NCBI GenBank assembly: GCA_963823195.1 | Contig: CAWGKR010000004.1 | Location: 314,281-378,280, forward strand | DNA from: an uncultured Acidobacteriota bacterium | Lineage (GTDB): Bacteria; Acidobacteriota; Vicinamibacteria; Fen-336 | DNA length: 64,000 bases | Reading direction: 5' to 3' | In this document: positions 7,417 to 33,214 of the stretch, piece by piece | Numbering within the stretch: the first letter of the stretch is position 1 | How the letters are laid out: the number at the start of each line of letters is the position of its first letter | The notes under the pieces: generated by a model | Databases searched by the model: none | What the model saw: the letters and a program-made list of their open reading frames with translations, nothing else | Told to the model about the DNA's origin: nothing | Position numbers and translations under genes: made by a program

Positions 7417-10018
7417 GTCCGGGAAGACGACCGCGGACCCGACGAAGACGTCAGATTCTTCTGGTCGCACACCTGTGGACCGGCCCCGCGACGGGCCGCT
7501 AGACCAGGGCCGCTTCGCTCCCGGCACGATCCTCGCCGGTCGCTACCGTGTGGTCGGCCTCCTGGGCCTGGGAGGCATGGGCGAGGTCTACAGGGCCGAC
7601 GACCTTCGCCTCCGGGAGAGCGTGGCGCTCAAGCTGCTGCGACCCGATCTCGCCGCGGACCCTGTCCGTCTCGCCCGCCTCCATGCCGAAGTGCGAATCG
7701 CCCGCAACGTCTCCCACCCCCACGTCTGCCGCGTTCACGACATCGGCGAGGCCGACGGCCTGACCTTCCTCAGCATGGAGTACGTGGACGGCGAGGACCT
7801 TGCCGCGCTCCTGAAGCGGGTGGGACGTCTGCCGGCGGAGCGGGCGGTGGTGGTGGCACGACAGATCTGCGCGGGCCTGGCGGCCGTCCACGAGAGCGGG
7901 GCGCTTCACCGTGACCTGAAGCCCTCGAACGTGATGATCGACGGGCGGGGGCATGCCCGCCTGACCGACTTCGGCCTCGCCGTCGTCGCCGACGAGGCGC
8001 GCGGGGAAGCACCCGAGATCGCCGGCACCCCTGCCTACATGGCGCCGGAGCAGATCGCGGGCACGGCCCTGACGCCCCAGACCGACCTCTTCGCCCTCGG
8101 CCTCGTTCTCTACGAGCTGTTCACGGGGCGGGCCGCTTTCCCCGCGGGGTCGAAGCCCGGCGCCGAGGAGACCGAGCGCACCGCCCCTCTACAGCCCTCG
8201 AGCCACGTGGCGGATCTCGACCCGCGCATCGAACGCGTGATCCTCCAGTGTCTCGAGACGGTCCCCGAGCGACGGCCGGCCTCCGCGGGCGCGGTGGCCG
8301 CGGCCCTTTCCGGGGACGACGCCCTCGCCGCCGCAATCGCGGCTGGCGAGACCCCGTCGCCCGCGATGGTGGCGGCGGCGGGGGAGGGCGCCGGCTTCAG
8401 GCCGGTAACGGCGCTGGCCGTGGCTGCCCTCGGCCTCCTGGTCTTCACGCTGCACGTCGTGTTCCAGGACCACGTCACGTTCTTCGCCCAGATCCCCCTC
8501 GAGAAGCCCCCCGCCGTTCTGGCGGAGCGGGCCCGCGAAGTGATGCGCAGGCTTGGCTATCCTGAGCCCCGGAGCCAGGACTTCGGCTTCACCTACGACG
8601 ACGCGTTCCTCCAGTACACGGAGGACCACGACGCGTCGCCACGGCGCTGGGAGGCGCTGCGCGTGGGACAACCCGCCGCGATCTCATTTTGGTGCTGGGA
8701 GGACGCGGTGGAGGGTGGTCCTCGTGAGCTCTCCCATCCCGCGCTTCGCGGAGGTCCCGGGCTGCCACAGGGAATCGCAGTGTTGCACCTGGATACCCGG
8801 GGCCGGCTCCTCCACTTCCTCCTGGTGCCCTGGGCAGGCTATGCCGCGCTGGAGACGGCCCCGGACTGGAACGTCCCACTGGCCCTGGCCGGACTGGACC
8901 CGGCCGCGCTGCGTCCCGCGGAGCCGACCTCCATCCCGGCGGTCTTCGCCGACCGCCGCGCCGCCTGGGAAGGCGTCTTCCCCGAAGCGCCTCGGTTTCC
9001 GCTGCGTGTCGAGGCGGCCGCTTTCCGCGGTCGGATCGTGGACTTCCGGATCCTGGCCCCCTGGACTGGTGCGGCGCCTGCGCCCCGATTGGACGCCTCG
9101 ACGCTCGAGGGAGGGATCATGGCCCTCCTCGTCCCGGTCCTGATCGCGGGCCTTTTCCTCGCACGCCGCAACTACCGGTTGGGTCGCGGGGACCGGAAGA
9201 GCGCTTGGCGCGTGGCCGTCGTGGCTTTCGCCTGCCAGCTGTTGTCTTCGCTCTTCTGGAACGTCCACGCCGGCTCGCCGCTCGACCAGTGGCAGAGCCT
9301 CTCCTCAGCTGTCGGGAAGGCACTCTTCATGTCCGCCCAGCTCTGGGTCTTCTACATGGCGCTCGAGCCCTACGCACGTCGCCGCTGGCCGGAGACGCTC
9401 ATCGCCTGGAGCCGGCTGCTGTCGGGCCGTTTCCGCGACCCATTGGTGGGCCGCGACCTTCTGGTGGGAGCTCTGATCGCGCCGTCGGCTTTCGCCCTCC
9501 TGATCCTGTGCCACACCGTCCAGGTTTGGATCGGAGAGCCGGGGCCGCGGCTCTTGGAGGCGCCCCTCTACCTCACGCTCGGGGTTCAGAACTTTGCGTT
9601 CCGCTTGTTCGACATGCTGCGCGTGGCAATCCTCGTCGGGATGATGGCGCTGCTATTCCTCGTGCTGCTGCGGGCGTTGCTCCGCCACCAGGCCGCGGCC
9701 CTGTGGGCCGTCTTTGCCGCCTTCACGGCGATCCTGGCGTTGGGATGGGGGCGCGGCCGCCTCTCGTGGGTGGAGCTGCTCGCGTACGCGAGCATCAGCG
9801 TCCTCTTCTGCGTGACCCTGCGCTTCGGCCTCCTGGCCGCGATCGTGGCCATGTTCCTGGCTCTGCTCCTGGATTCTCCGATGACGACGAATCCGTGGGC
9901 CTGGTATGCCCAGACGACCTTTCTCCTCTGCGGACTGTTCGCCGCCGTGGTGGGCTGGGGACTGTATGCCTCCCTTGCTGGCCGATCCATCGGGTGGAGC
10001 CGCCTCCTCGAGGAGTAG
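7400..10018 (+). CDS. Hanks-type Ser/Thr protein kinase with large C-terminal polytopic membrane domain
   Basis: GxGxxG loop (LGLGGMGEVY), VALK, HRDLKPSNV, DFGLA, AYMAPEQ, then one TM and a C-terminal region of about 8 TM helices. No frameshift. Confidence 0.85.
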   Translation: MPPIGRSGKTTADPTKTSDSSGRTPVDRPRDGPLDQGRFAPGTILAGRYRVVGLLGLGGMGEVYRADDLRLRESVALKLLRPDLAADPVRLARLHAEVRIARNVSHPHVCRVHDIGEADGLTFLSMEYVDGEDLAALLKRVGRLPAERAVVVARQICAGLAAVHESGALHRDLKPSNVMIDGRGHARLTDFGLAVVADEARGEAPEIAGTPAYMAPEQIAGTALTPQTDLFALGLVLYELFTGRAAFPAGSKPGAEETERTAPLQPSSHVADLDPRIERVILQCLETVPERRPASAGAVAAALSGDDALAAAIAAGETPSPAMVAAAGEGAGFRPVTALAVAALGLLVFTLHVVFQDHVTFFAQIPLEKPPAVLAERAREVMRRLGYPEPRSQDFGFTYDDAFLQYTEDHDASPRRWEALRVGQPAAISFWCWEDAVEGGPRELSHPALRGGPGLPQGIAVLHLDTRGRLLHFLLVPWAGYAALETAPDWNVPLALAGLDPAALRPAEPTSIPAVFADRRAAWEGVFPEAPRFPLRVEAAAFRGRIVDFRILAPWTGAAPAPRLDASTLEGGIMALLVPVLIAGLFLARRNYRLGRGDRKSAWRVAVVAFACQLLSSLFWNVHAGSPLDQWQSLSSAVGKALFMSAQLWVFYMALEPYARRRWPETLIAWSRLLSGRFRDPLVGRDLLVGALIAPSAFALLILCHTVQVWIGEPGPRLLEAPLYLTLGVQNFAFRLFDMLRVAILVGMMALLFLVLLRALLRHQAAALWAVFAAFTAILALGWGRGRLSWVELLAYASISVLFCVTLRFGLLAAIVAMFLALLLDSPMTTNPWAWYAQTTFLLCGLFAAVVGWGLYASLAGRSIGWSRLLEE

Positions 10019-15148: not shown

Positions 15149-16453
15149 CTACACAAACAGGCTGACGGGGTTCTCCAGGAGGCGGCGGACCTCGGCCAGG
15201 AACTGCGCGGCGAGCGCGCCGTCGACGACGCGGTGGTCGGCGCTCAGCGTCACCTTCATCCGATGGCCGACGGCGAGCTGGTCGTTCACCACGACCGGCA
15301 TCTTGCGGACCGCGCCGACCGCCAGGATGGCGCTTTCGGGCGGGTTGATGATGGCCGTGAACTCGGTCACGTCGTACATCCCGAGGTTGGAGATGCTGAA
15401 CGTCGAGCCCATGAACTCCTCGGGGCGAAGCTTCCGGTCCCGGGCTCGGGTGGCCAGGTCCTTCACCTCCCGTGAGATGTCCACGACCGCCTTCCGATCG
15501 GCGTTGCGGACCACGGGGACGATGAGGCCGTCGGGCACCGCGACGGCGACGCCGATGTGGACGTCGGCATGGGTCACGATCTTGTCGCCGCCCCAGGAGG
15601 CGTTGACGCTCGAGAAGCGCGTGAGGGCACGGGCGCAGGCCTTCACCACGAGGTCGTTGAACGACACCTTGACGTTCTCGCCGCGGACCAGCTGCTCGCG
15701 AAGGCCCACGGCCGCGTCCATGTCGATCTCGACGGTCACGTAGAAGTGGGGCGCCGTGAACTTGCTCTCGGAGAGGCGCTTGGCGATCGTCTTCCGCATG
15801 TTGGAGAGCGGGATCTCCTGGCCGGGCGTCGGCTGCGGCGTCACCGGTGCGGCCGCGCGCGGTTCCGCCGGAGCCGCTGCGCCGGAAGCGCGGGGCGCGG
15901 GCCGCGCGCCGGAGGCGTAGGCCTCGATGTCGCGCTTGACGATCCGGCCGCCGGGGCCGCTGCCGGCGACGGACCCGAGCGGGATGTTCTGCTGCGCGGC
16001 GATGGAGCGCGCCAGAGGGCTGGCCTTCACGCGTCCGCCGTCGTTCGAGACGGCCGGCTGGGGCGCGACGGCCACGGGCGCCGCCGGCGGGGGAGCGGGA
16101 GACGTGACGACGGGCGCGGGCGTCGCGGCGACCGCGGGTGCCGGCGCGGCAGGTGCCGGCGCAGGAGCCGGCGCCGCAGCTGCCGATGCGATCATCGCCG
16201 AGATGTCCTCGTTGGCACCCGCGACGACGCCGATCAGCGCTCCAACGGGAGCCTTGCCGCCGGCCGGAACCAGGATCTTGCGCAGGATCCCGTCCCCGAG
16301 GGCCTCCATCTCCATGTTGGCCTTGTCGGTCTCGATCTCGGCCAGGACGTCGCCCACCTTGACGGCATCGCCTTCGTTCTTGGTCCACTTGACGATGGTC
16401 CCCTCTTCCATCGTCGGCGACAGCTTGGCCAGCACGACCTTGGTGACGCTCAT
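15149..16453 (-). CDS. pdhC: dihydrolipoamide acetyltransferase (PDH complex E2)
   Basis: Lipoyl domain ([23 protein letters not shown]...[13 protein letters not shown]), Ala/Pro linker, E3-binding domain and catalytic domain ([10 protein letters not shown]). ATG overlaps the E1-beta stop (ATGA). Confidence 0.9.
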
Positions 16454-17428
16454 CGGTAGAGGACCTGGTGGACGGCGTCGACCACCTTCTCCGGCTGCGG
16501 CAGGTAGGCCTTCTCCAGCGTCTTGGCGTAGGGCATCGGGACGTCGGCGGCGGTCACTCGGATCACGGGCGCGTCGAGGGCGTCGAAGCACTCGCGCTGC
16601 ACCCGGTCGGCGATCTCGGCGCCGAAGCCCGCGTACCGCCACCCCTCCTCGACCACGACGCAGCGGTTCGTCTTCCGGACCGAGTCGAAGATCAGGTCCT
16701 CGTCGAGGGGGCGCAGCGTGCGCGGATCCACCACCTCGGCCTCGATGCCGTCCTTCGCCAGGAGGTCGGCGGCCTGGAGCGACGTGGTGACCGACCGACT
16801 CCACGCGACGATGGTCACGTCCTTCCCCTCGCGCTTCACGTCGCGCGAGGCCGAGGGGGATGTGGTACTCCTCGTCGGGGACCTCGCCCTTGAAGTTGTA
16901 GAGGACCTCGTTCTCCATGAAGATCACGGGGTTGTCGTCGCGGATGGCGCTCTTCAGGAGCCCCTTCGCGTCCTTGGGCGTCGACGGCATCACCACCACG
17001 AGGCCGGGGATGTGGGCGTACCAGCTCTCGAGGGCCTGCGAGTGCTGTGCGGCCACCTGGGCGGCCGCTCCCGACGGTCCGCGCATCACCATGGGGCAGC
17101 GGATCTGGCCGCCCGACATGTAGCGGTACTTGGCGGCGTGGTTGACGATCTGGTCGAGGGCGAGGATCGAGAAGTTGAACGTCATCATCTCGGCGATGGG
17201 GCGGAGGCCGATGAAGGCCGCGCCGACGGCGATGCCGGCGATGGCCTCCTCGGCGATGGGCGTGTCGCGGACGCGCCACTCGCCGTACTTCGCCAGCAGC
17301 CCCTGGGTGATCTTGTAGGCGCCCTGGTAGGCGCCCACCTCTTCGCCCAGGATGAAGACGTTCGGGTCCCGGGCCATCTCCTCGTTCATGGCCTGGTTCA
17401 GCGCCTCGCGCATCGTCAGGAGGGCCAC
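16450..17428 (-). CDS. pdhB: pyruvate dehydrogenase E1 beta subunit; one frameshift near 16840-16870
   Basis: [47 protein letters not shown]...[12 protein letters not shown], then a shifted frame [13 protein letters not shown]...[14 protein letters not shown] start 5 nt after the inferred E1-alpha TAG. Confidence 0.85.
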
Positions 17429-17430
17429 GG

Positions 17431-18508
17431 CTAGCTCCCCACCTTGACGACGGCGGGCGCCGGTGCCGGGTACTCCGCGGGCACGCGGTCCTCGCGAACG
17501 GCGGCGCGCCAGGCCGGATCCTTCTCGGCCGCCCTTCATGTGCATGTACGGGGAGCGCACGTAGACGTCCTCGAAGAGGGATTCGGCCGGCGGGAACGGG
17601 CTCTCCTCGGCGAACTTCACGGCCGCGTCCATCTCCGCCAGGATCTCCTGGTCCATCGCGTCCAGCTCGGACTGGGGGACGCGCTCCTGCTCGACGAGGC
17701 GCTTGCCGAAGAGGTGGAGGGGGTCGGACTGCATCATGTGCTCCACCTCCTCCTTGGTGCGGTACTTCCCCGGGTCGGACATCGAGTGGCCGCGGTACCG
17801 GTAGGTCTCGGCCTCGATGAGGGTGGGCCGCTTCTCCTTGCGGGCCCGATCGATGGCCTCGCCCAGGACGTCCCGCACGGCCATGAGGTCCATGCCGTTC
17901 ACCTCGCGGCGCGGTATGCCGTAGGCCGAGCCCCGCTGGTAGAGGTCCTTCACCGACGACGCGCGGTCGAGGGCCGTCCCCATGCCGTACCGGTTGTTCT
18001 CGATGATGTAGACGACGGGGAGGTCCCAGAGGGCGCTCACGTTCAGGGCCTCGTGGAAGGCGCCCTCGTTCACGGCGCCGTCGCCGAAGAAGCAGAGCGC
18101 GACCTGGTCCGTTCCCCGAAGCCGGATGCCGTAGCCCATGCCCGCGGCCATCGGGATGTGCCCGCCCACGATGCCGTCGCCGCCGAAGTTGCCGCGCGGG
18201 ACGTCGTAGAAGTGCATGCTGCCGCCCTTGCCGCGGCTGATGCCGGTGGCCCTGCCGCACAGCTCGGCCAGCAGCGGCCGGGCGTCGGTGCCCCGGGCCA
18301 GGGCGAGGCCATGGTCGCGGTAGGAGGTGACGAAGTAGTCGTCGGATCGCAGCAGGCTCATCGCCGCCACGCCGACCGCCTCCTGGCCGATGTACAGGTG
18401 GAGGAAGCCGCCGATCTTCCCTTCCACGTAGAGCTGCGCGCAGCGCTCTTCGAAGCGGCGGATGAGAAGCATCGAACGGTAGAGTGAAAGCGCCTCTTGT
18501 CTATCCAT
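17431..18508 (-). CDS. pdhA: pyruvate dehydrogenase E1 alpha subunit (TPP-binding); frameshift near the C-terminus
   Basis: [45 protein letters not shown]...[15 protein letters not shown]...[11 protein letters not shown]. As given, it reads in frame into pdhB without a stop; a 1-nt frame correction gives ...KVGS-TAG located 5 nt before the pdhB GTG. Confidence 0.85.
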
Positions 18509-18584
18509 TTCTTTCTGGGCCGAGCGAGAGAGTGAGCAACATGTTTTATACCGCGCCGGCCGCGGGGCGTCAACGAACGCATGT

Positions 18585-19545
18585 TAGGCTCGGCCCGTGG
18601 ACAGCCTCCTCGCGCAGGCGCTGGGCGGAATCCTCGAGGGCGCGGAACCTGGCGGCCGCCATCGCCCTCGGGGCTTTCGCGGGCCTCGTCCTCGACATCG
18701 CCCTGCGCTTGCGATCGGGGCGCGCCGGCACCCTGCGAGCCCTTGCCTTCGCGGGCTTGGGGATCGCCGCGCTCGCCCTCGGCGGCCTCTACGCGTTCCT
18801 GGCGCGGTCCCTGGCTCCACCTGGGCGTTCGAGGGGCCCTTGCCCTGGCCCTCGGGAGCCTGCTGGTGGCGGGACCTGTCCTCGCCCTGCTCGTCGCGGG
18901 CCGCCCCGCGGCTGTGTGGCGGGATCGGCGCCTGGCTCGGGCGAGCCGGCGTGCTGGCGGCCCTCGTCGCCGTCGCGGTGGTCACGCTCCTGACCGCGGG
19001 CTTCGTCTCCCTGACCGAGGACCACCCCGTGCTCCTGGTCGACGTCACCGGCGAGACCGGCTCCCGGGAGGTCCACTGGACGCCCCCGGACGGCACGCCC
19101 CAGGTCCAGAGCCTGACGACGCACCACGTCGTGTTCCGCGAGCCGGGCGGCTCGTTCGTGGCCGAGGCCTGGGTCTACGGGGACGAGGTGGCGGTGAAGG
19201 GGCGGGTCCTGCGTCTGTCTCCGGTGCTGAACGCCGCCGGCTTCCCCAACCTCTTCGAGCTGCTCTTCGCCCACAACGGCTGGACGCACGGCCGAGCGCC
19301 ACAACGCCTTCCCCCATGTCGGCGTCCTGCTTCCCCGCGTCGGCCCGCTCTCGGTGCACCCCCTCTGGCGTCCGCTCCAGGTGCGGCTGCTCGCCTACTG
19401 GGAGAGGCGCAGCGGAGACGGCGCCTGGGCCGTGCGCTCCGCCACGATCGAGTCGACGTACTTCCCGCTCGTGGACCCGGACGGCAAGCCGCTCAGCCAC
19501 ACGTACCGCCTCGTCCTGACCCCCGGCGGCCTGACCTCGTCGTGA
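18585..19545 (+). CDS. hypothetical multi-TM membrane protein with C-terminal soluble domain; at least 3 frameshifts
   Basis: TM segments are spread over three frames (LAAAIALGAFAGLVLDIAL / GALALALGSLLVAGPVLALLVAG / VLAALVAVAVVTLLTAGFV). A conserved-looking C-terminus follows (...VFREPGGSFVAEAWVYGDEVAVKGRVLRLSP...STYFPLVDPDGKPLSHTYRLVLTPGG). It is divergent from the pdh promoter and ends 5 bp before the amidohydrolase. Confidence 0.45.
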
Positions 19546-19550
19546 GAGGA

Positions 19551-21231
19551 CTTCGGCGCCGACGGATGGCCGTCGCGATCCTGGCCCTGGGCGCGGCCGC
19601 CAGTTCCGCGGGGCCCGTGCCGCCGCCCGACCTGATCCTCACCGGCGACTTCATCACCCTCGACCCGGGGACGCCGCGCGCACAGGCGATCGCCATCACC
19701 GGCCAGCGCATCGTGGCCGTGGGCCCGCAGGCCGGCGTCCTGGCGCTGGCCGGGCCGCATACCAGGCGCCTCGCGCTCCCCGGGGTCGTGGTTCCGGGCT
19801 TCGTCGATGCTCACGCCCATCCGTCGGCACTGGGAGAGCAGCTCGAGATCCTCGACCTGAGCAAGCTCTCGAAGGGGGAGATCCTCGCGCGCGTCGCTGC
19901 GGCGTCGCGCACGGCGCCGGAGGGCGAGTGGATCCGCGGAACAGGGTGGGACCAGGGGCGCTGGCAGCCGCCCGAGTTCCCGACGGCTGCCGAGCTCGAC
20001 GGGGTGTCGGGCACCCATCCCGCGCTCCTGGACCGCGTCGACGGCCACTCCGTCTGGATCAACTCCCGGGCGCTCCGCCTCGCTCGCATCACGCGCGACA
20101 CGCCCGACCCGAAGGGTGGGAGGGTCCAGCGCGACGCGGCCGGCGAGCCGACGGGCGTCCTGATCGACACGGCGGTCGATCTCGTGAGCCGAGTGGTGCC
20201 CGCGCCGACTCACGCCACGCTGGAACGCCGGCTTCGGGCGGCGATGGCCCGGTACGCGGCCTGGGGGTTGACGGGCGTCCACGATGCGGGCGCCAGCCTG
20301 GCCGACATCGCCCTCTACAAGGAGCTGCTCGCGAAGAAGGCCGCTGCCCCTCCGTGTCTACGCGATGGCCCTCGGCACCGGAGAGACGGCGGAGCACTAC
20401 CTGCAGAGCGGGCCCGAGATCGGCCTGGGCGACGGCCGCCTGACGATCCGGAGCTTCAAGGTGCTCCTCGACGGCGCCCTCGGATCGCGGGGAGCGCAGC
20501 TGTCGGAACCCTACAGCGACGCGCCGTCGGAGCGCGGCCTCGAGCTCCTGGGCGACCAGGCCCTGGCCACGCTCGTGGAACGGGCCGCCGCCAAGGGATT
20601 CCAGGTCTGCGCCCACGCCATCGGCGACCTCGCGAACCACCGCCTGCTCGACGCGTTCGCTCGGGCCGGAGACGCCGCCCGCAAGCTCCGGTTCCGCGAC
20701 GAGCACGCCTCCATCGTCCGGGACGAGGACGTGCCGCGGTTCGCGACGCTGGGCGTGGTCGCGTCGATGCAGCCGGTCTTCGTCGGGGAGTACAGCCGCT
20801 GGGCCGCCGAGCGCGTCGGGCCGGCTCGTCTCAAGTGGGTCTACCGCACGCGGGACTTGCTGGAGCAGGGCGCCGTCGTCGCCTCGGGGACCGACTTCCC
20901 GAGCTCCGACGCGGGGGACGCCGTGGCCACGCTCGCCAGCATGGTCACCCGGAGCGGCCCCGATGGCGCGCCGGCGGACGGCTGGCTTCCGGATCAGAGG
21001 GTCGATGTCGACGTCGCCTTGCGGAGCATGACGGCCGCACCCGCCTTCGCGTCCTTCCAGGAGAACGACCTGGGCGCGCTGACCGTCGGGCGATACGCCG
21101 ACCTCACAGTCCTCTCCGCGGACCCCTACGCGGTGCCGCCCGCCGAGCTGCGGTCCCTTCGCGTCCTCATGACCTGGGTGGGTGGCCGCGTCGTCTTCGA
21201 GCTCGGCGTCGCGCCCTGGGAAGGGCGGGGG
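19551..21231 (+). CDS. amidohydrolase family protein (Amidohydro_3 / YtcJ-like metal-dependent hydrolase), secreted; frameshift near 20320-20345; exact stop uncertain
   Basis: Arg-rich signal peptide (V/M)[22 protein letters not shown]; GFVDAHAHP metal-binding motif; ...AHAIGD...HASIV...ASMQP...SGTDFP...[12 protein letters not shown]. Confidence 0.75.
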
Positions 21232-21253
21232 GTGCATCGGCTCGAGCCAGGCG

Positions 21254-22414
21254 CTACAGGAACGGCGGGTCGTCGGCGGTGGCGGGGCGCCCTTCGGCGG
21301 CGTGGACGACGCCGTCGCTGCCGAGCATGAGGTATCGGCCGGTTCCGCCGTGGGCGCGGCCGAGACGGCGAAGCGGCGGAAGCTCCGCTTCGGGCATCCG
21401 GCCGTGGGCGCCACCGGGTCCATCACCGTGAGCTCGAAGTGACAGCCGTTCGCCTCGGGCGCGGCCAGCTCCGGTGGCAGGAACACCGGGCCCGACGGCG
21501 GGTAGTTCGTGATCACGCTCGCGGGGTTGGTGAGCCCGTCGAGGTCGGCATAGGTTCCGCAGGTCCCGAGCCGAAAGGCCTCCTCGGCGGCCACGACGGC
21601 TTTGAGGCGCGCGACGCACACGGCCGCCGTCGACCGCGCCCGAGACGCCGCGACTTCAGGTACCTGGGGAGGTAGATCGCCGCGATCACACCCGCGACGG
21701 TCAACATGAGCAGCACCAGGCATCCGACGGCGCCGATGATCAGGAGGGTCTTGCCACTTCCTGCGGCCTTGGCCGGCGACGCGCGGGGCGGCGGCGCGGG
21801 GCTCGAGCCGCGGCAGCGACGGGGCGGCCGCTCGCGGGGCGGCGGGCCGAGGTGGCGCCGCCGGGGGTGGCGGAGGCGGCTGCGGAGGGCGGTTTCGCCG
21901 GTGGGGGCGGTGCCGCGACCGGCGGCCGAGGTGCGGGAGCGGGCGCGGGGGCCGCGGGCGCGCGGCGGCGAGGCGCGGCCGCTCCGCTCAGGTCGTTCAT
22001 GTCCTCCGGGGCCATCACGAGCGTCCCGGGGACGTCCTCCTCGAGGACCTTCAGGGTCACCTCGCCGACCCGGACCGTGTCCCCCACGACGAGCTGGGCC
22101 CGCTCGACCTTCTTGCCGTTGACGTAGACGCCGTTGGCGCTGCCGGCGTCCCGGACGGCGATCCCGTCGGGGCCCGCCTCGAGCACCGCATGGCGGCGCG
22201 AGCACTTGGGGTCGTTCAGGACGAGGTCGCAGGACGGGTCGCGGCCGAGCACGGCCACGGTCCCCGACAGCTCGACCTCGTGCTGAGCCCCGGTCGGATA
22301 GCGGATCTCGAATCTCACGGTATCCCTTTTGCCACCGATGACTTGACCGGATTCTAGCAGGGATTGGAGGGCGCCGCCCACGGCTGGCGCTCCGGCCCCG
22401 GCGTGGTGTAGCAT
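21254..22414 (-). CDS. FHA-domain protein fused to a Pro/Ala linker, a single pilin-like TM helix and a Cys-containing periplasmic pilin-like domain; at least 3 frameshifts
   Basis: FHA core: TVRFEIRYPTGAQHEVELSGTVAVLGRDPSCDLVLNDPKCSRRHAVLEAG...NGVYVNGKKV. Pro/Ala-rich linker. TM GKTLLIIGAVGCLVLLMLTVAGVIAAIYLPRYLKS resembles a type IV pilin N-terminal helix but lacks the G-F cleavage site and Glu5. Ectodomain ...AAVCVARLKAVVAAEEAFRLGTCGTYADLDGL...NGCHFELTVMDPVAPTAGCPKRSF...RYLMLGSDGVVHAAEGRPATADDPPFL-stop. Confidence 0.55.
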
Positions 22415-22447
22415 CGGCTTCCGCCGTTCTCTCGGGAGATCGCTTCA

Positions 22448-25400
22448 ATGATCACTGCGGATCCTCAGAAGCGGGCCGCGCGCCTCGCGGAGCTCAAGGA
22501 GATCCTGACCCGCACGGCGGCCCCCGACGACCGGGACCTGCTCCTCTCCTTCGCCCCGGTCCTCTACGCGGAGATGCCCGACCGGATCGCCCTGGACCTC
22601 CACGTCGAGACCCTGGCGGCGCGGATCCAGGAGCATTTCCGCTTCGTGGTCCGGGAGATGCCCCCGGCCTTCCAGCTCTACAAGGGGCTCCCGGGCATCC
22701 ACGTCTGGGCCCGGAACCCGAGCGAGGCCGAGTCCCGCGCCACCGGCGCCGAGGACGGCCTCCCCCTGGAGACGACCATCGTCGAGACCCACACCCTGGA
22801 CGCGCCGTTCATCTTCGAGAGCCTGAAGAACTACTTCCAGAAGGCGGACCTCCGCGTCTTCTCGGCGATCCATCCGATGTTCAGCGTCCGCCGCCAGTGG
22901 GAGCGGATCGTGGCGGTGGGCTCCTCCCAGGACGAGGGCTCGAAGGAATCGTTCTGCCACTTCCAGATCGAGCGCATCGAGTCCAAGGAGCGGCTCCGGC
23001 GCATCGAGCACGAGATCTTCTCGGTCCTGAAGGCCGTCTTCACGGCGGTCGAGGACTTCCAGGACATGGTCCGGGTCGTCGCGCGAGACGGGGCCGCGCC
23101 TCCGGTCGCGCCGCGGCGACGCGCCCGACGTCGCGTCGGCCCGGGCCTTCCTCGACTGGCTCCTCCAGGACAACTACATCCTCCTCGGCACCGCCCGCTA
23201 CCGCATCGGCGCCGACGACCTGCCCGATCGCATCCCCGAGAGCGCGTCGGGCGTCTTCACCGACGCGACGCTGCTGCCGGTGGTCTTTCCCGGGCGTCAT
23301 CGAGGAGGTGGAGGCCCACGTCCGGCCCGAGCCCGGCGACGATCGGATCATCGACATCGACTACTGCAAGAACGCGCACCGCCATCTACCACCTCGAGCC
23401 GATCGACGACATCGTCCTCCGCGAGTGGAACGAGGACGGGAGCCTGGCCGAGGTCACCGTTCTCGTCGGGCGCTTCGCCAAGGGGGCCTTCGCCGAGAAG
23501 GCCTCCGACATCCCGCCGCTGAAGGAGAAGCAGGACTGGCTCCTGGCCCACAGCGGCGCCCTGCCCAACTCCCACGCCTTCCGGGAGATCCGCGGCGTCT
23601 TCAACCGCTTCCCCAAGCGGGAGCTCTTCTACGCCGACGTCCAGAGCCTGAAGGAGGTCCTGGACCGCATCGTCTACATGACGGGGGACGACGAGATCGC
23701 GGTCTACAGCCGGACCGGGAAGGGGTACGTCGCCCTCTCCATCGCCTTCTCGCGCCTCCGCTACTCGTACAAGATCGAGGAGGACCTGCGCCGGAGCCCT
23801 GGCCGAGGAGTTCGGGCCGATCTCCTTCCACACCTCGGCCGACTGCGGCGGCGGTGACGCTGCTCCTCTACTACTTCGACGCCAACCTCCTCGAGCACCC
23901 GGTGGAGGAAGAGGCCGTGCGCCGCCTCACGCGGGCACTCGTCACCACCTGGGAGGACCGGGTGAGCGCGATCCTGGAGAAGTCGTTCGGAGAGCGGGAG
24001 GGGCGCCGCCTCTTCGAGCGCTACGTGCGCTCCGAGACGCGGAGCGGCATCTACCGCGAGTCGACGCCCCCCGAGGAGGTCCCCGACGACCTGACCCACC
24101 TCGAGACCCTCGAGGGCCGCCTCGTCACCGCCGTGGTGCCGCGGACGAGCGAGATGGTGAGCCTGAAGCTCTACTCGGTGCGACCGCTCGGCCTCACCGA
24201 CACGCTCCGGACCCTCCAGAACCTGGGCCTGTCGCGTCACCGAGGAGCTTCAGATCACCCTGGCGCTCCCCGAGGGCCGGAAGGGGTATCTCTACCGGTT
24301 CGCCATCGAGGCTCCCCCGGGCCGCATCGCGTCACTTCTGTCGGGCGGTGAGCGCTTCGCCAAGGCGCTCCGGGCCCTCGACGAAGAACGGGCGAGCGAC
24401 GATCCGCTGAACGGCCTCGTCCTGCAGGCCGGACTCGGCTGGCGCGAGGTCGAGGTGCTGCGCGCGCTGCGCAACCACCTGCTCCAGATTCGGCCGTACT
24501 ACAACGTCGAGACCGTGAACGGCGTCCTGCTCGCGCAACAGCAACGTGGCCCGCGCGCTCTTCCGGTCCTTCGCCGCGCGCTTCGACCCGGCGGTCACGG
24601 GGGACCGCGCCGAGGCCATCGCCGAGAGCGAGAAGGGTGTCAGGGCCGCCCTCGAGGCCGTGCGCAGCCTCGCCGAGGACGAGGTCCTCCGCGCCCTCGA
24701 CAACCTCGTCCGATCCAGCCTGCGCACGAACTTCTACCAGAGCCCCGAGCGGCCGGTGGTGGCGATCAAGGTCGACAGCCGGAAGGTCGAGGGGATGCCG
24801 TCGCCACGGCCCATGTTCGAGATCTACGTCCACTCGCGGCTCATCCAGGGGATCCACCTGCGCGGCGGCAAGGTCGCGCGGGGCGGCATCCGCTGGAGCG
24901 ACCGCCACGACGACTTCCGGACCGAGATCCTGGGCCTGATGAAGACGCAGATGGTGAAGAACGCCATCATCGTCCCCGTCGGCTCCAAGGGAGGCTTCGT
25001 CCTCAAGGGCGACGTCCCGCCGCGGCCGGCGCTCGACGCCTACCTGATCGACCGCTACCGGGAGTTCGTGTCCGGGCCTCCTCGACGTCACCGACAACAT
25101 CGTGGACGGCGAAGACGCTCCACCCGCCCGAGGTCGTGCGCCACGACGCCGACGATCCGTACCTCGTGGTGGCGGCCGACAAGGGGACGGCGCACCTCTC
25201 CGACACCGCGAACAGCGTCTCGGCGCAGTACGGCTTCTGGCTCGGCGACGCCTTCGCCTCCGGGGGGAGCGTCGGCTACGACCACAAGAAGGTCGGGATC
25301 ACGGCCCGCGGGGCGTGGGAGTGCGTGAAGCACCACTTCAAGAACCTGGGCCTCGACGTCCAGACGCAGGCCTTCACCATGGCCGGCGTCGGCGACATGG

Positions 25401-26684
25401 CGGGGGACGTCTTCGGCAACGGCGCCCTCATGAGCCGCGCGACGCGCCTCGTGGCCGCCTTCAACCACCTGCACATCTTCGTCGACCCCAACCCCGACCC
25501 CGAGAAGACGTACAAGGAGCGCGAGCGCCTCTTCCGCCTGCCGCGGTCGAGCTGGCGCGACTACGACACGAGCCTCATCAGCGCCGGCGGCGGCATCTTC
25601 GACCGATCCGCCAAGGCGATCCCGCTGTCCCCCGAGATACGCCAGCTCCTCGACATCGAGGGGGAGAGCGCCTCCGGGGAGGAGGTCGTGCGCCGCATCC
25701 TGACGATGCGCGTGGACCTCCTGTACAACGGCGGCATCGGCACCTACGTGAAGGCCTCGAGCGAGGAGGACGCCGACGTCGGCGATCGCGCCAACGACCG
25801 CGTGCGCGTCGACGGCCGCGACCTGCGGGCGCGGGTGGTGGGCGAAGGGCGGCAACCTCGGCTTCACCCAGAAGGGCCGCCTCGAGTACTGGCAGCGGGG
25901 CGGTCTCGTGAACACCGACGCCGTGGACAACTCGGGCGGCGTCGACATGTCGGACCACGAGGTCAACATCAAGATCCTCATGGACCTCCTCGTGAAGCGC
26001 GGCGCCGTGAAGGGGCGGGAGGAGCGCAACAGGATCCTGGCCGAGATGACCGAGGAGGTCGCGGATCTGGTGCTCGCCGACAACGCGAGCCAGGCCCTGG
26101 CCCTGAGCCTCGACGGCCTCCGGAGCGCCGCCCGCTACGACGAGTTCGTCCGTCTCATCGAGGACATGGCGGGGGCCGGCGTCCTGAACCGCGCGGACGA
26201 CGCGATCCCCACGCGCGACGAGCTCCTGGCGAGCCCCGAGCAGAAGCGGGGCCTGCCGCGGCCGCTTCTCTGCCTCCTCCTCGGCCACACGAAGATGTTC
26301 GCCTTCGAGATGGTGATGGAGAGCGACTTCCCGGAGAGCGCCTCAGGGCGTCCCTTGCTCGAGCGCTACTTCCCGAAGCGGCTCCACGTCTTCAGCGAGC
26401 ACTTCGAGGGGCACGCCCTGCGCCGGGAGATCGTCGCCACCGCGGCCGTCAACTACATCATCAACAACGCCGGCGTCTGCTTCCTGTCTCGTCTCATGGC
26501 GACGACGAAGGCGGGCATCGGCGAGGTCGTGGCCGCCTACCTCGCTGCCGATCGCGAGTCGGGCGTCGAGAAGCGGGCGGCCATATTGGGCGCAGGGCAT
26601 CCCGCCGCGGCCGAGCAGGAGGCCCTTCTCGGCCTCGAAGACGAGCTGGAGGCCGCGACTCGCTCGCAGCTCGGAACGGCTTGA
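22448..26684 (+). CDS. gdhB: NAD-specific glutamate dehydrogenase, large (about 1400-1600 aa, GdhB/Bac_GDH family); about 8 frameshifts
   Basis: Consecutive conserved blocks across alternating frames: [20 protein letters not shown]..., ...[21 protein letters not shown]..., ...[15 protein letters not shown]..., ...[13 protein letters not shown]..., ...[13 protein letters not shown]..., ...[30 protein letters not shown]...RGGIRWSDR...[13 protein letters not shown], ...[35 protein letters not shown]..., ...[42 protein letters not shown]... to the stop at 26684. Confidence 0.85.
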
Positions 26685-29801: not shown

Positions 29802-29877
<76 letters not shown>

Positions 29878-31034: not shown

Positions 31035-33214
31035 ATGGCGATCGAGCCCGGCACGCAGCTGGGACAGTTCGAGGTCTTGTCGCCGCTGGGCCGCGGCGGC
31101 ATGGGAGAGGTGTATCGCGCGCGCGACTCGCGGCTCTCCCGCGAGGTGGCGCTCAAGGTCCTGCCCGAGGCCCTGGCCAAGGATGCCGACCGGGTGCTGC
31201 GTTTCGAGCGTGAGGCCCGGGTCCTTGCCTCCCTGAACCACCCGCACATCGCGGCCGTCCACGGCTTCGAGCAGGGGGACGGCCACCGTTTTCTCGTGCT
31301 CGAGCTCGTGCCCGGGCTGACGCTGGCGGAACGGCTCGCCAAGGGCCCGATCGAGGTTCGCGAGGCCCTGACCATCGCCCGCCAGATCGCGGAGGCCCTC
31401 GAAGAGGCCCACTCCAAGGGCGTGATCCACCGCGACCTCAAGCCCGCAAACGTCAAGATCACACCCGAAGGGCGGGTGAAGGTCCTCGACTTCGGCCTGG
31501 CCAAGGCCATGGGAATGGACGAACCGTCGGAGGCCTCGCTCGAAGACTCGCCGACGCTGGACCGCGTGGACAGCGCGGGTGTCATCCTGGGCACGGCCGG
31601 CTACATGAGCCCCGAGCAGGCGCGAGGATATGTCGTGGACAAGCGGGCCGACGTCTGGGCCTTCGGGTGCGTGCTCTTCGAGATGCTGGCGGGGCGGCGG
31701 CTCTTCAGCGGCCCCTCGAGCACCGATGCCCTCGCTGCGGTGCTCACGGCCGAGCCCGAATGGGCCCGGCTGCCCGAGCGGACGCCCCCGCTCGTGCGGA
31801 GCCTGTTGCGCCGCTGCCTGCAGAAGGACAAGGCCTCGCGGCTCCACGACATCGCCGATGCGCGCCTCGAGATCGAGGACGCGCTGCGGGAGGAGATCTC
31901 GGGAATCGTCCCGGCACCTCGGTCCCGCCCCCCGTTCGATCCCCGCCGGGCCCTTACGCATGCTCTCGCGTTCGTGGTCGGCGGCCTCGCGGGCGCGGCG
32001 CTCGTGTCCGCGCTCGCGCGGCCGAAACCGGTCGCGTCCACCGGCCGCTTCAACATAAACCTGCCGGCCGAGAGCGTTCTGCGCAACGCCTTGCAGGGCG
32101 TCCTTCCCATCGTGCTCTCCTCGGACGGCACGCGCATCGCCTACGTCGGCCAGCGTCCCGATGGCCGGAACCAGGTCTTCGTGCGGCGCATGGATCGCCT
32201 CACGCCCGAACCCGTGGCAGGGACCGAGGGCGCGATCATGCCCTTCCTCTCACCGAACGGCGAGTGGCTCGGCTTCATGTCCGAGGGCAAGGTAAAGAAG
32301 ATCCCGCTGGCAGGCGGGCAAGCCTCCGTGATCTGCGACGCTCCCGACCCACGCGGCGCAAGCTGGGGCGAGGATGGAACCCTGCTGCTCGCGCCCCGAA
32401 ACGGCGGCGGAAGGTGTCGCCCGACGGCAAGCAGATCGCGGTCGTGATCGAAGGCCCTGAGGACAGCCTCTGGGTCCTCGACATCCAATCCGGCACGCCG
32501 AGCCGGCTGACCTCCGACATGGACGTCAGCTCGGTCGAATGGAGCCCGGACGGCCGCTCCCTGTTCCTCACCGGCAACGCGGACGGTCCACGGAGCATCT
32601 ACAAGGTCGCGGCCGACGGCAGCGGGAAGCCGGAGCTCGTGTTCCGCAAGACGGAATGGTGGACGAACGACCTCTCTCCGCGCCCGGACGGCTCCGGCGT
32701 CCTGTTCGCGGCGCAGGACGTGGGCGGTCACGACATCGTCTTCGTCCGCGAGGGGAGCCAGAAGGCCGAGCCATTCCTGGCGACGCCCAGCGACGAACGC
32801 CAGGAGGCGTTCTCCCCGAGCGGCGTCTTCGTCGCTTATACGTCGAACGAATCTGGCCGAAACGAGGTCTACGTGCGTCCCTTTCCTGGACCTGGTCCGA
32901 AGCGCCAGGTCTCGACCAGCGGCGGGATCATCCCGAGCTGGTCACGGGACGGCCGGGAGATCTTCTACTGGCAACCGGACCAGGTCGGGCGCCTCATGAA
33001 GGTGGCTTTCGACCCGGGGGACGCGAAGCTGAGCCGGCCGCAACCGCTCTTCGAGGTGCCCCTCGCCCAAGTCGATACCATGTCCCTGATGCCGGGCAAC
33101 CAGCAGTTCGTGATGGTGGAGCCAGTGAGCGAGGAGACGAGCCCACTCCTCATCGTCGTGATCCCCAGCTTCCTCGACGAGATGAAAGGGCGTCTCGCGG
33201 GCAAGCGGCCGTGA
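31035..33214 (+). CDS. Hanks-type Ser/Thr protein kinase with one TM and C-terminal TolB-like (PD40/WD40-like) beta-propeller; one frameshift near 32400
   Basis: LGRGGMGEVYRA, VALKVL, HRDLKPANV, DFGLAK, GYMSPEQ. TM ALAFVVGGLAGAALVSAL. Repeated ...SPDG...IAYV / SPDGK / SPDGRSLF / SPSGVFVAY / SRDGREIFY propeller blades. Confidence 0.8.

Follow-up and report, generated by a model that had tools for sequence, protein, structure and literature searches.

The question raised by this locus is what a protein with a cytoplasmic FHA domain at one end and a pilin-like domain at the other might do beside a gene for a large NAD-specific glutamate dehydrogenase (GDH). The gene lies on the minus strand of the window (the whole stretch of 64,000 nucleotides, from a soil acidobacterium, that was analysed), where a first-pass annotation had placed it. 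Three-frame translation and stitching, an indel map against L002 and comparison with intact orthologous open reading frames gave its limits as 21254..22318, a region that encodes an FHA domain, a Pro/Ala linker, a pilin-like transmembrane (TM) helix and a pilin-fold ectodomain. The product is about 356 amino acids long after the correction of at least four frameshifts, rather than the roughly three reported earlier; the map against L002 places +1 shifts near 21647 and 21625, a -1 shift near 21348 and a net -1 in the linker. The start codon and the stop codon are nevertheless in one frame, 1065 nt long. The start was assigned to a GTG at 22318 and the stop to 21254. An in-frame ATG upstream at 22414 is a less likely start and was dropped because the ribosome-binding site that precedes the GTG (AAGGGAT) and the GTG itself are conserved in five relatives, all of which start at the equivalent position. 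The distance to the GDH gene was given before as 34-120 bp; GDH begins at 22448, 33 nt from the ATG and 129 nt from the GTG. Because neighboring genes are broken as well (by tblastn, the window copy of GDH has at least nine frame changes and pdhB has one, while pdhA and E2 have none), the frameshifts in the FHA gene are most likely sequencing errors.

The fusion of FHA and pilin-like modules is real. In 39 of 41 related loci, L002 and L004-L007 among them, the FHA domain and the ectodomain are joined in a single uninterrupted frame, which settles the choice between one gene and two in favor of the fusion proposed by the first-pass annotation. Members of the family were found in Acidobacteriota, Vicinamibacteria among them. 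In most, an additional membrane module precedes the pilin helix, so that the single-TM topology described earlier is correct for the window gene but is a minority form and not the family norm; for the prevailing, multi-TM form, a topology is suggested by secondary structure and charge bias only. No description of an architecture combining an FHA domain with an uncleaved pilin-derived ectodomain was found in curated families or in the literature. A word-indexed homologue search returned only six truncated proteins, and an exhaustive search of representatives reached full-length FHA-bearing members as well as prepilins. In most metagenome records the gene is truncated by gene callers, and protein databases therefore largely hide the fusion.

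The FHA domain occupies residues 1-100 (22019..22318, minus strand). Residues 23-85 match Pfam FHA (PF00498) with an E value of 2.6e-18 and 66.6 bits against a cut-off of 20.7, which bears out the N-terminal FHA domain of the earlier description. All of the phosphothreonine-binding residues (G25-R26, S40-R41-R42-H43 and N62-G63) are present; they are invariant in six aligned full-length proteins and are kept in at least 60%, and mostly in at least 90%, of 26 aligned family members. The closest solved FHA domains are those of GarA, Rv1747 and OdhI (E ~5e-10). The best NCBIfam match of the FHA domain is GltG (87.5 bits), OdhI scores 50.2 bits and both are far under the cut-offs; the N-terminus also matches Pfam Yop-YscD_cpl (E 4.1e-18). 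Judged by its sequence, the FHA domain is generic. Just past the FHA fold, the family alignment revealed a semi-conserved motif, P-G-T-L-V-M-A-P-E-D (22001..22030, minus strand), with Thr99 and a Met at +3. Of the 26 aligned members, 22 have a threonine here, and pLDDT over the segment is low in the model of the full-length protein. The motif is a candidate phospho-acceptor or FHA-docking site. The Pro/Ala-rich, low-complexity linker that follows (21756..22000, minus strand), in which three-frame translation and the indel map located at least one frameshift, is found in all relatives and is variable in sequence.

The remainder of the protein was shown to descend from a type IV pilin-like protein. 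The TM helix (GKTLLIIGAVGCLVLLMLTVAGVIAAIYLPRYLKSR, encoded at 21648..21755, minus strand) is homologous to pilin alpha1-N, as judged by weak NCBIfam matches to PilA and GspG, by profile matches to prepilins with N_methyl and by manual register against MKKQKG/FTLIELLIVVAIIGIIAAIAIP. It keeps the equivalents of G14 and P22. The ectodomain (21254..21647, minus strand), which contains the frameshifts near 21647, 21625 and 21348, is made up of an alpha1-C helix (ARLKAVVAAEEAF), an alpha-beta loop and a four-stranded sheet. An AF2 model (pLDDT 91.6) has the pilin fold, with one long N-terminal helix on a four-stranded antiparallel sheet. Among 1.8 billion proteins, the family profile matched prepilins bearing N_methyl at E ~1e-10 (P0115, P0130, P0149 and P0156, all above the N_methyl cut-off), and hhalign gave 97.5% and E 8.8e-12 over 129 columns. 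Structure prediction and profile homology thus confirm the pilin-like character first suspected by eye. Pfam returned nothing for the ectodomain with either single sequences or the family profile. A profile search of PDB sequences produced only sub-threshold pilin matches (PilA5, E 0.039) and spurious beta-trefoil matches. The four cysteines noted before are present in the C-terminal domain; one pair (GTC and GC[PA]xR) is invariant in the family and the second is confined to the single-TM clade. The same pilin-like module also stands behind Zn-ribbon, GYF and other N-termini.

A class III signal peptide was not found. The helix begins near residue 205 and has Leu at +5, in keeping with the absence of Glu5 pointed out before, and Pfam PF07963 (N_methyl) was matched by neither the window protein nor the family profile. 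The earlier statement that the protein has no prepilin-peptidase site holds for the leader and the N_methyl motif but must be qualified, since a Gly does occupy the equivalent of -1 (IIG/AVGCL), where it is preceded by hydrophobic residues; it is not retained in more distant members. Because the class III leader and Glu5 have been lost, the alpha1-N helix is most likely a permanent N-in/C-out anchor, and the protein most likely displays, on the periplasmic side, a pilin fold that contains a disulfide. The sequence features argue against cleavage by prepilin peptidase and against assembly into a filament.

The neighborhood of the gene is conserved on both sides. The divergent neighbor, at 22448..26681 on the plus strand, is a heavily frameshifted gene of the large NAD-specific GDH (L-GDH) family, identified by tblastn against L004 and by Pfam on the intact L004 orthologue (Bac_GDH_CD, E 2.7e-234, with ACT, HM and GDH_C domains). 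A divergent L-GDH gene was present in 34 of 34 loci, and the adjacency to gdhB raised by the first-pass annotation is thus a constant feature. That annotation had missed a second neighbor, equally conserved, downstream: a pyruvate dehydrogenase operon (pdhABC) of the mitochondrial type on the same strand as the FHA gene (15152..18562, minus strand, by tblastn), with pdhA at 17522-18562, pdhB at 16453-17473 and E2 at 15152-16453. The L004 orthologues score above the cut-offs of TIGR03182, NF006667 and TIGR01349. The pdhA-pdhB-E2 genes lie within 400 nt after the FHA gene in 32 of 37 loci, usually 35-210 nt downstream. The gdh/pdh synteny is kept even where GDH identity is as low as about 54% and that of the ectodomain about 45%, and the outer flanks vary from locus to locus. 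In the single-TM clade to which the window belongs, pdhA no longer adjoins the FHA gene. An insertion at 18640..21250, recognized by tblastn and Pfam and missing from most relatives, in which pdhA directly follows the FHA gene, contains two plus-strand genes convergent to it: one for an unannotated conserved membrane protein (18640-19542) and one for an Amidohydro_3 protein (about 19545-21250).

The FHA and gdh genes share a short divergent intergenic region (22319..22447). Comparison of seven loci identified the box GTGGTGTAGCATC at 22403-22415, the box CTGCTAGAATCC at 22349-22360 on the minus strand and the ribosome-binding site. A scan of 21000-22700 for sigma-70 promoters and terminators returned nothing, and a -10 reading of the intergenic box is tentative for that reason; a search of Rfam turned up neither a riboswitch nor any other RNA close to the FHA gene. 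The two Hanks kinases to which the first-pass annotation drew attention are indeed in the window, as Pkinase domains at about 7.7-8.2 kb and 31.2-31.7 kb. They add little because they lie 13 and 9 kb from the FHA gene and those relatives whose flanks carry Pfam calls have no kinase listed there, and we set the two aside as members of the system. FHA-binding motifs of the form pT-x-x-[ILVD], which the first-pass annotation suggested looking for in GDH and the kinases, occur too often in a protein of 1400 residues to tell much unless phosphosite data are at hand.

Mycobacterial GarA, an FHA protein, inhibits a GDH of the same family, L-GDH180, as well as the E1 of 2-oxoglutarate dehydrogenase (PMC8175468, PMC5448819). 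In the locus described here, an FHA gene is locked between a divergent large NAD-GDH gene and a same-strand pdhA-pdhB-E2 operon, and it is this gene context that suggests a link to glutamate metabolism. Our preferred explanation, to which we give a little less than an even chance, is that the protein is a membrane-tethered, GarA-like FHA adaptor that acts on GDH, PDH or both. It would be a bitopic inner-membrane protein in which an N-terminal FHA domain with a complete phosphothreonine-binding site is connected by a flexible Pro/Ala linker to a periplasmic pilin fold. The FHA domain, tethered to the membrane, would bind GDH and/or the E1 of PDH through a phosphothreonine or an acidic mimic, and the bound enzyme would be either inhibited or drawn to the membrane; flux at the pyruvate / 2-oxoglutarate / glutamate node would be set in this way. 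The adaptor might itself be controlled by Ser/Thr phosphorylation, possibly of the conserved Thr in PGT[LV]VM beside the FHA domain, which would then act as an intramolecular switch. It might also respond to a signal sensed in the membrane or periplasm by the pilin-derived ectodomain or helix. Conserved gene order may persist without physical interaction.

The strongest alternative, which we consider unlikely, is that the protein is an accessory of an envelope or pilus machine. The pilin part would dock on a type IV pilus or type II secretion-like platform, or on the membrane pool of pilins, and a phosphorylated cytoplasmic component would be brought in through the FHA domain, on the pattern of SctD/YscD, TagH/Fha and GltG, leaving the link to gdh and pdh as historical gene order. 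The FHA-TM-periplasmic layout is typical of machine components, the similarities to Yop-YscD_cpl and GltG point the same way and a PilZ gene follows pdhC in some relatives. Furthermore, the Zn-ribbon and GYF domains that precede the pilin-like module elsewhere are cytoplasmic domains seen in GltJ (PMC11135422). However, no flanking pilus or secretion genes were seen in the loci examined, the matches to machine families all fall far short of their cut-offs and an N-terminal extension of 200-300 residues is unable to fit a pilus core. The synteny with gdh, unbroken over deep divergence in spite of the varying outer flanks, also speaks against a role in such a machine.

The same gene context would serve equally well for a second alternative, that the protein is a membrane scaffold rather than a regulator. 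As a scaffold, it would hold GDH, the PDH complex or both at the inner membrane as a metabolon near transporters or the respiratory chain, with the pilin part no more than a device for anchoring or oligomerization. Pilin alpha1 helices self-associate in membranes. The PDH-ODH complex of Corynebacterium has a defined cellular location (PMC10581250). We regard this explanation as improbable, since the ectodomain is well conserved, and a passive anchor would not need its invariant Cys pair or the many surface-loop motifs that do not vary.

Two further explanations are very hard to sustain. The protein might be a processed precursor, cut after the Gly (LLIIG/AVGCL) to yield a soluble cytoplasmic FHA protein and a free, pilin-like membrane protein. 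In the single-TM clade this Gly is located exactly 23 residues ahead of the conserved Pro22 equivalent, and G14 is kept too. Nevertheless, hydrophobic residues take the place of a short charged leader, Glu5 and the N_methyl match are lacking, the Gly is out of register in P0058, P0011 and L005, and about 200 residues precede the helix; no leader of such a size is known. Equally implausible is a decaying pseudogene that makes only fragments (a 224-aa FHA protein and a separate remnant): four frameshifts in 1065 nt are denser than in pdhA or E2, but essential neighbors are broken likewise, amino acid identity to L004 is still 59-93% in each segment, the correct frames contain no stop codons, the indels sum to zero and so leave start and stop in the same frame, and the gene is intact in the close relatives L002, L004 and L016.

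A broader proposal may be considered, although we think it rather unlikely: Acidobacteriota may have evolved an FHA switch of their own for the pyruvate / 2-oxoglutarate / glutamate node, separately from Actinobacteria, in which the sensor is a domesticated type IV pilin whose helix and ectodomain read the envelope or the pool of pilins in the membrane and whose state is relayed directly through the tethered FHA domain to the large NAD-GDH and to the PDH complex. If so, it would be the first pilin fold to have been turned into a transmembrane signaling receptor for central metabolism. FHA control of the 2-oxoglutarate node is regarded as a speciality of actinobacteria, and an FHA gene fixed between L-GDH and PDH genes in another phylum, whose members abound in soil and are for the most part uncultured, points to a second solution reached independently. 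An anchored pilin that lacks processing signals, together with the occurrence of the same module behind other N-termini, suggests a wider, unrecognized class of anchored pilin-like receptors.

The protein shares features with several known systems and belongs to none of them. Like SctD/YscD, TagH/Fha and GltG, it combines an FHA domain in the cytoplasm with an anchor in the membrane and a further domain in the periplasm. It scores far below the thresholds for all three (SctD/YscD TIGR02500, 21.9 against 86; TagH TIGR03354, 41.2 against 120.25; GltG NF033760, 87.5 against 650), as do its multi-TM relatives, and it differs from these systems in carrying a pilin fold in the periplasm, where they have ring-building motifs or a TonB-like domain, and in that no machine genes are near. 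FhaB/FipA (Rv0019c) and Rv1747 of mycobacteria are likewise membrane-associated, with cytoplasmic FHA domains read by Hanks kinases, and show comparable sequence similarity; their topology and partner domains are different, they have no pilin-like module and the match reaches 55 bits where 125 are required. With type IV pilins and the pseudopilins of type II secretion systems (N_methyl, PF07963) the protein has in common a homologous TM helix and globular domain, the pilin fold, G14 and P22, but it is without their short charged leader, Glu5 and N_methyl match, and its Cys pattern differs from that of related prepilins. It cannot be a filament subunit because the pilin helix is internal, with 200-330 residues ahead of it.

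GarA and OdhI are actinobacterial FHA regulators of KGD/ODH, L-GDH and GOGAT. GarA, described as unique to Actinobacteria (PMC12321487), is small and soluble and has an N-terminal ETTS phospho-switch, whereas the protein described here has neither ETTS nor an N-terminal extension. It starts directly at the FHA fold, falls below the cut-off of 200 bits for OdhI (NF041660), is anchored in the membrane with a pilin-derived ectodomain and is encoded next to PDH, not ODH. Like GarA and OdhI, whose FHA structures are among the closest solved, it has a full phosphothreonine-binding site. The targets of GarA include the large NAD-GDH family (PMC8175468) and a 2-oxoacid dehydrogenase E1, and a member of each is encoded next door here.

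The first-pass annotation had read a fusion from the window, an N-terminal FHA domain joined in one gene to a pilin-like part, and both the fusion and the FHA domain were borne out. A continuous frame from the FHA domain to the C-terminus (338-507 codons) was present in 39 of the 41 fetched loci. On the short-read metagenome contig L002, a single unbroken frame spans FHA domain, linker, TM helix and ectodomain, and the N-terminal part of GDH is encoded divergently beside it; four Acidobacteriota MAG contigs (L004, from Vicinamibacteria, L005, L006 and L007) show this arrangement too. The fusion of FHA domain and ectodomain is real. The 21 family members that word-indexed searches recovered were all incomplete: their starts are internal and none carries an FHA annotation. 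Where the databases give any name, it is no more than 'FHA domain-containing protein [Vicinamibacteria bacterium]'. In metagenome records the called start falls nearly always inside the linker or membrane region (related proteins P0001-P0022), probably owing to antisense ORFs in the GC-rich linker, and as a result the ectodomain appears in protein databases stripped of the FHA part.

Residues 23-85 match the Pfam FHA model with an E-value of 2.6e-18 and a score of 66.6 bits, where the cut-off is 20.7. The phosphothreonine-binding residues of FHA domains (G25-R26, S40-R41-x-H43 and N62) are all there and are invariant in the family, and the FHA domain is better conserved than the remainder of the protein. 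The sequence identifies this as a cytoplasmic FHA domain that should be able to bind phosphothreonine. Scores against named FHA families were all far under cut-off: GltG 87.5 against 650, FhaB 55 against 125, OdhI 50 against 200, TagH 41 against 120 and SctD 22 against 86. The closest solved structures are GarA, Rv1747 and OdhI (E about 5e-10), a ranking that mainly mirrors what has been crystallised. Directly after the FHA fold is a semi-conserved motif, P-G-T-[LV]-V-M-x-P-[ED], with Thr in 22 of 26 aligned members, in a segment that the full-length model predicts with low confidence. This Thr, which has the FHA domain beside it and a hydrophobic residue at +3, is a plausible candidate for a phospho-switch.

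The FHA gene (21254-22318, minus strand) lies between GDH (22448-26681, plus strand, by tblastn) and an Amidohydro_3 gene (about 19545-21250, plus strand; E 5.9e-55). The latter is preceded by a gene for an unannotated membrane protein of about 314 aa (18640-19542, plus strand, convergent to the FHA gene), and pdhA, pdhB and E2 occupy 18562-15152 on the minus strand. In the close relative L004, GDH is intact, with Bac_GDH_CD (E 2.7e-234), ACT, HM and GDH_C domains, and the PDH genes match TIGR03182, NF006667 and TIGR01349, each above cut-off. Context was counted over 49 family loci, limited on either side to those with at least 400 nt there. The L-GDH gene is divergent from the FHA gene in 34 of 34, so the position beside GDH seen in the first reading recurs in the orthologues, and pdhA follows on the same strand within 400 nt in 32 of 37. 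The arrangement persists even where GDH is down to about 54% identity with L004 and the ectodomain to about 45%; genes farther out vary among loci. The FHA gene has been kept adjoining gdh and pdhABC.

The five loci without an adjacent pdhA are L004, L013, L016, L017 and L028, three of them from the single-TM clade of the window protein. A convergent membrane-protein gene separates the FHA gene from pdhA in L004 and L028, both of which are long enough to show this; in L013, which carries the single-TM relative P0026, the downstream gene, 16 nt away, encodes an Acidobacteria-type VWA protein (TIGR03436; 2972-3679) and not pdhA. The membrane protein of about 314 aa is conserved but has no Pfam or NCBIfam match, and its counterparts are likewise convergent to the FHA gene (L001, 737-970; L004, 7751-8695; L028, 4355-5299). 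No related locus has room for the Amidohydro_3 gene at the corresponding place; the gene appears to have been inserted locally. E2 is followed by a PilZ-domain gene and selB in L010 (8675-9577) and in the 45-kb JGI contig of P0033, and in L007 (7937-9823) selB lies about 440 nt after E2 with nothing longer than 150 aa between; the conserved block may thus extend beyond pdhC.

Both Hanks-type Ser/Thr kinase domains reported from the first reading are present (about 7700-8200 and about 31200-31700, plus strand; Pkinase E 2.8e-39 and 6.7e-36), but their genes are 13 and 9 kb from the FHA gene, and the flanking genes annotated in relatives include no kinase. GarA uses its FHA phosphate pocket to inhibit mycobacterial L-GDH180 and the E1 of 2-oxoglutarate dehydrogenase, and Thr phosphorylation acts as its switch (PMC8175468, PMC5448819). 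By analogy, we tentatively propose, at a little under even chances, a membrane-held adaptor whose FHA domain would bind GDH and/or PDH E1, as GarA/OdhI do, and would thereby adjust flux at the pyruvate / 2-oxoglutarate / glutamate node, with input from Ser/Thr kinases and/or its own membrane or periplasmic module. The protein might instead be an accessory of the envelope or of a pilus machine, which would make its synteny with metabolic genes incidental; we consider this unlikely. That an FHA domain so held serves purely as a localisation scaffold is a still more doubtful proposition.

A pilin-derived helix anchors the FHA domain to the membrane and carries a pilin fold, which is probably periplasmic. 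Single-sequence matches were weak (NCBIfam PilA_Myxo, E 0.016; GspG, E 0.025), and so was a profile match among PDB entries, to Thermus PilA5 (E 0.039). Searching exhaustively with HMMER and a 17-sequence profile gave 564 representatives at E 0.001 or better. These include short proteins beginning MKKQKGFTLIELLIVVAIIGIIAAIAIPSLLRAR, which match along almost all of the profile at E about 1e-10 and score above the Pfam N_methyl cut-off. Aligned by hhalign to one protein of this type, the profile scored 97.5% probability (E 8.8e-12, 129 columns, 31% identity). Set in pilin register, the helix of the window protein retains the equivalents of Gly14 and Pro22. The first-pass annotation had described the helix as lacking both a prepilin-peptidase site and Glu5; Glu5 is indeed absent, position +5 being Leu, but a Gly does sit at -1. 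Since the residues before this Gly are hydrophobic, +5 is Leu, N_methyl has no match in the window protein and about 200 residues lie ahead of the helix, the C-terminal module is by these features a pilin-derived domain and not a prepilin, and a precursor processed by prepilin peptidase is very improbable. The Cys residues of GTC and GC[PA]xR are invariant in the family, and the single-TM clade alone has a second pair, a pattern that agrees with a periplasmic, disulfide-bonded domain. The same pilin-like module, which weakly overlaps Pfam DUF2950, also occurs behind Zn-ribbon, GYF, DUF4190, DUF805, multi-TM and other N-termini (P0067-P0169, e.g. P0075 and P0121), suggesting that pilin-like proteins with an N-terminal anchor and no possibility of cleavage form a broad class not yet described.

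The window protein is of the minority single-TM form (338-362 aa); most family members are 391-507 aa, with three added hydrophobic segments between linker and pilin helix. In the AlphaFold2 model of the multi-TM protein P0033 (pLDDT 88), the third segment is broken into a pair of 14-residue helices that meet at a conserved Cys/Pro turn; the turn itself is free of Lys and Arg, and both flanks of the segment are enriched in them. The modelled segment would fit a cytoplasmic re-entrant hairpin, which would place the pilin helix N-in/C-out in single-TM and multi-TM forms alike.

In the window itself, three-frame translation of the minus strand (21100-22500) spreads the product over several frames: an FHA-containing N-terminus and then a Pro/Ala-rich stretch, the hydrophobic helix GKTLLIIGAVGCLVLLMLTVAGVIAAIYLPRYLKSR, a 7-codon piece (VSGAVDG), a segment from AAVCVARLKAVVAAEEAF... 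to ...FAVSAAPT, and a last segment, HGGTGRYLMLGSDGVVHAAEGRPATADDPPFL, closed by the stop (21254). When aligned with the intact L002 gene, the window copy shows single-base indels near 21647, 21625 and 21348 and a net -1 in the linker, hence at least four frameshifts where about three had been estimated. The start-to-stop distance, 1065 nt, is divisible by three. Comparison with intact orthologues (tblastn) shows that at least nine frame changes are needed in GDH, one in pdhB, two in the membrane protein and none in pdhA or E2. The assembly at 15152-26681 is rich in single-base indels, and the whole window is likely affected. As neighbouring genes are damaged in like manner, the simplest reading of the breaks is assembly error, and a pseudogene in this particular genome is most improbable. 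The most likely start is GTG 22318, which is preceded by AAGGGAT; five relatives keep this layout, with a GTG or TTG start giving M-R/K-F/L-E-I/V-R-Y. GDH starts on the opposite strand at 22448, leaving a gap of 129 nt (22319-22447) with two boxes kept in 7 loci: GTGGTGTAGCATC (22403-22415), with TAGCAT, a -10-like element oriented towards gdh, and CTGCTAGAATCC (22349-22360, minus strand), with TAGAAT oriented towards the FHA gene. Both resemble divergent -10 elements; neither was called by a consensus promoter scan. Besides two tRNA genes (1028-1111 and 29802-29874, plus strand), no RNA family in Rfam reaches its gathering score in the window.

None of the curated Pfam and NCBIfam models covers the FHA-pilin architecture, full-text literature searches gave no paper on an FHA-pilin fusion or a GDH-linked FHA protein in Acidobacteria, and one paper describes GarA as unique to Actinobacteria (PMC12321487). 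On these grounds the protein would be, by analogy in function, an FHA adaptor whose anchor and ectodomain, both pilin-derived, are without precedent and whose metabolic gene context is strikingly conserved. SctD, TagH and GltG resemble it in layout and differ from it in periplasmic domains and gene context. Though homologous to type IV pilins, the protein lacks their defining leader and processing features. In mode of action GarA/OdhI would be most alike, although the protein lies outside the GarA/OdhI family.
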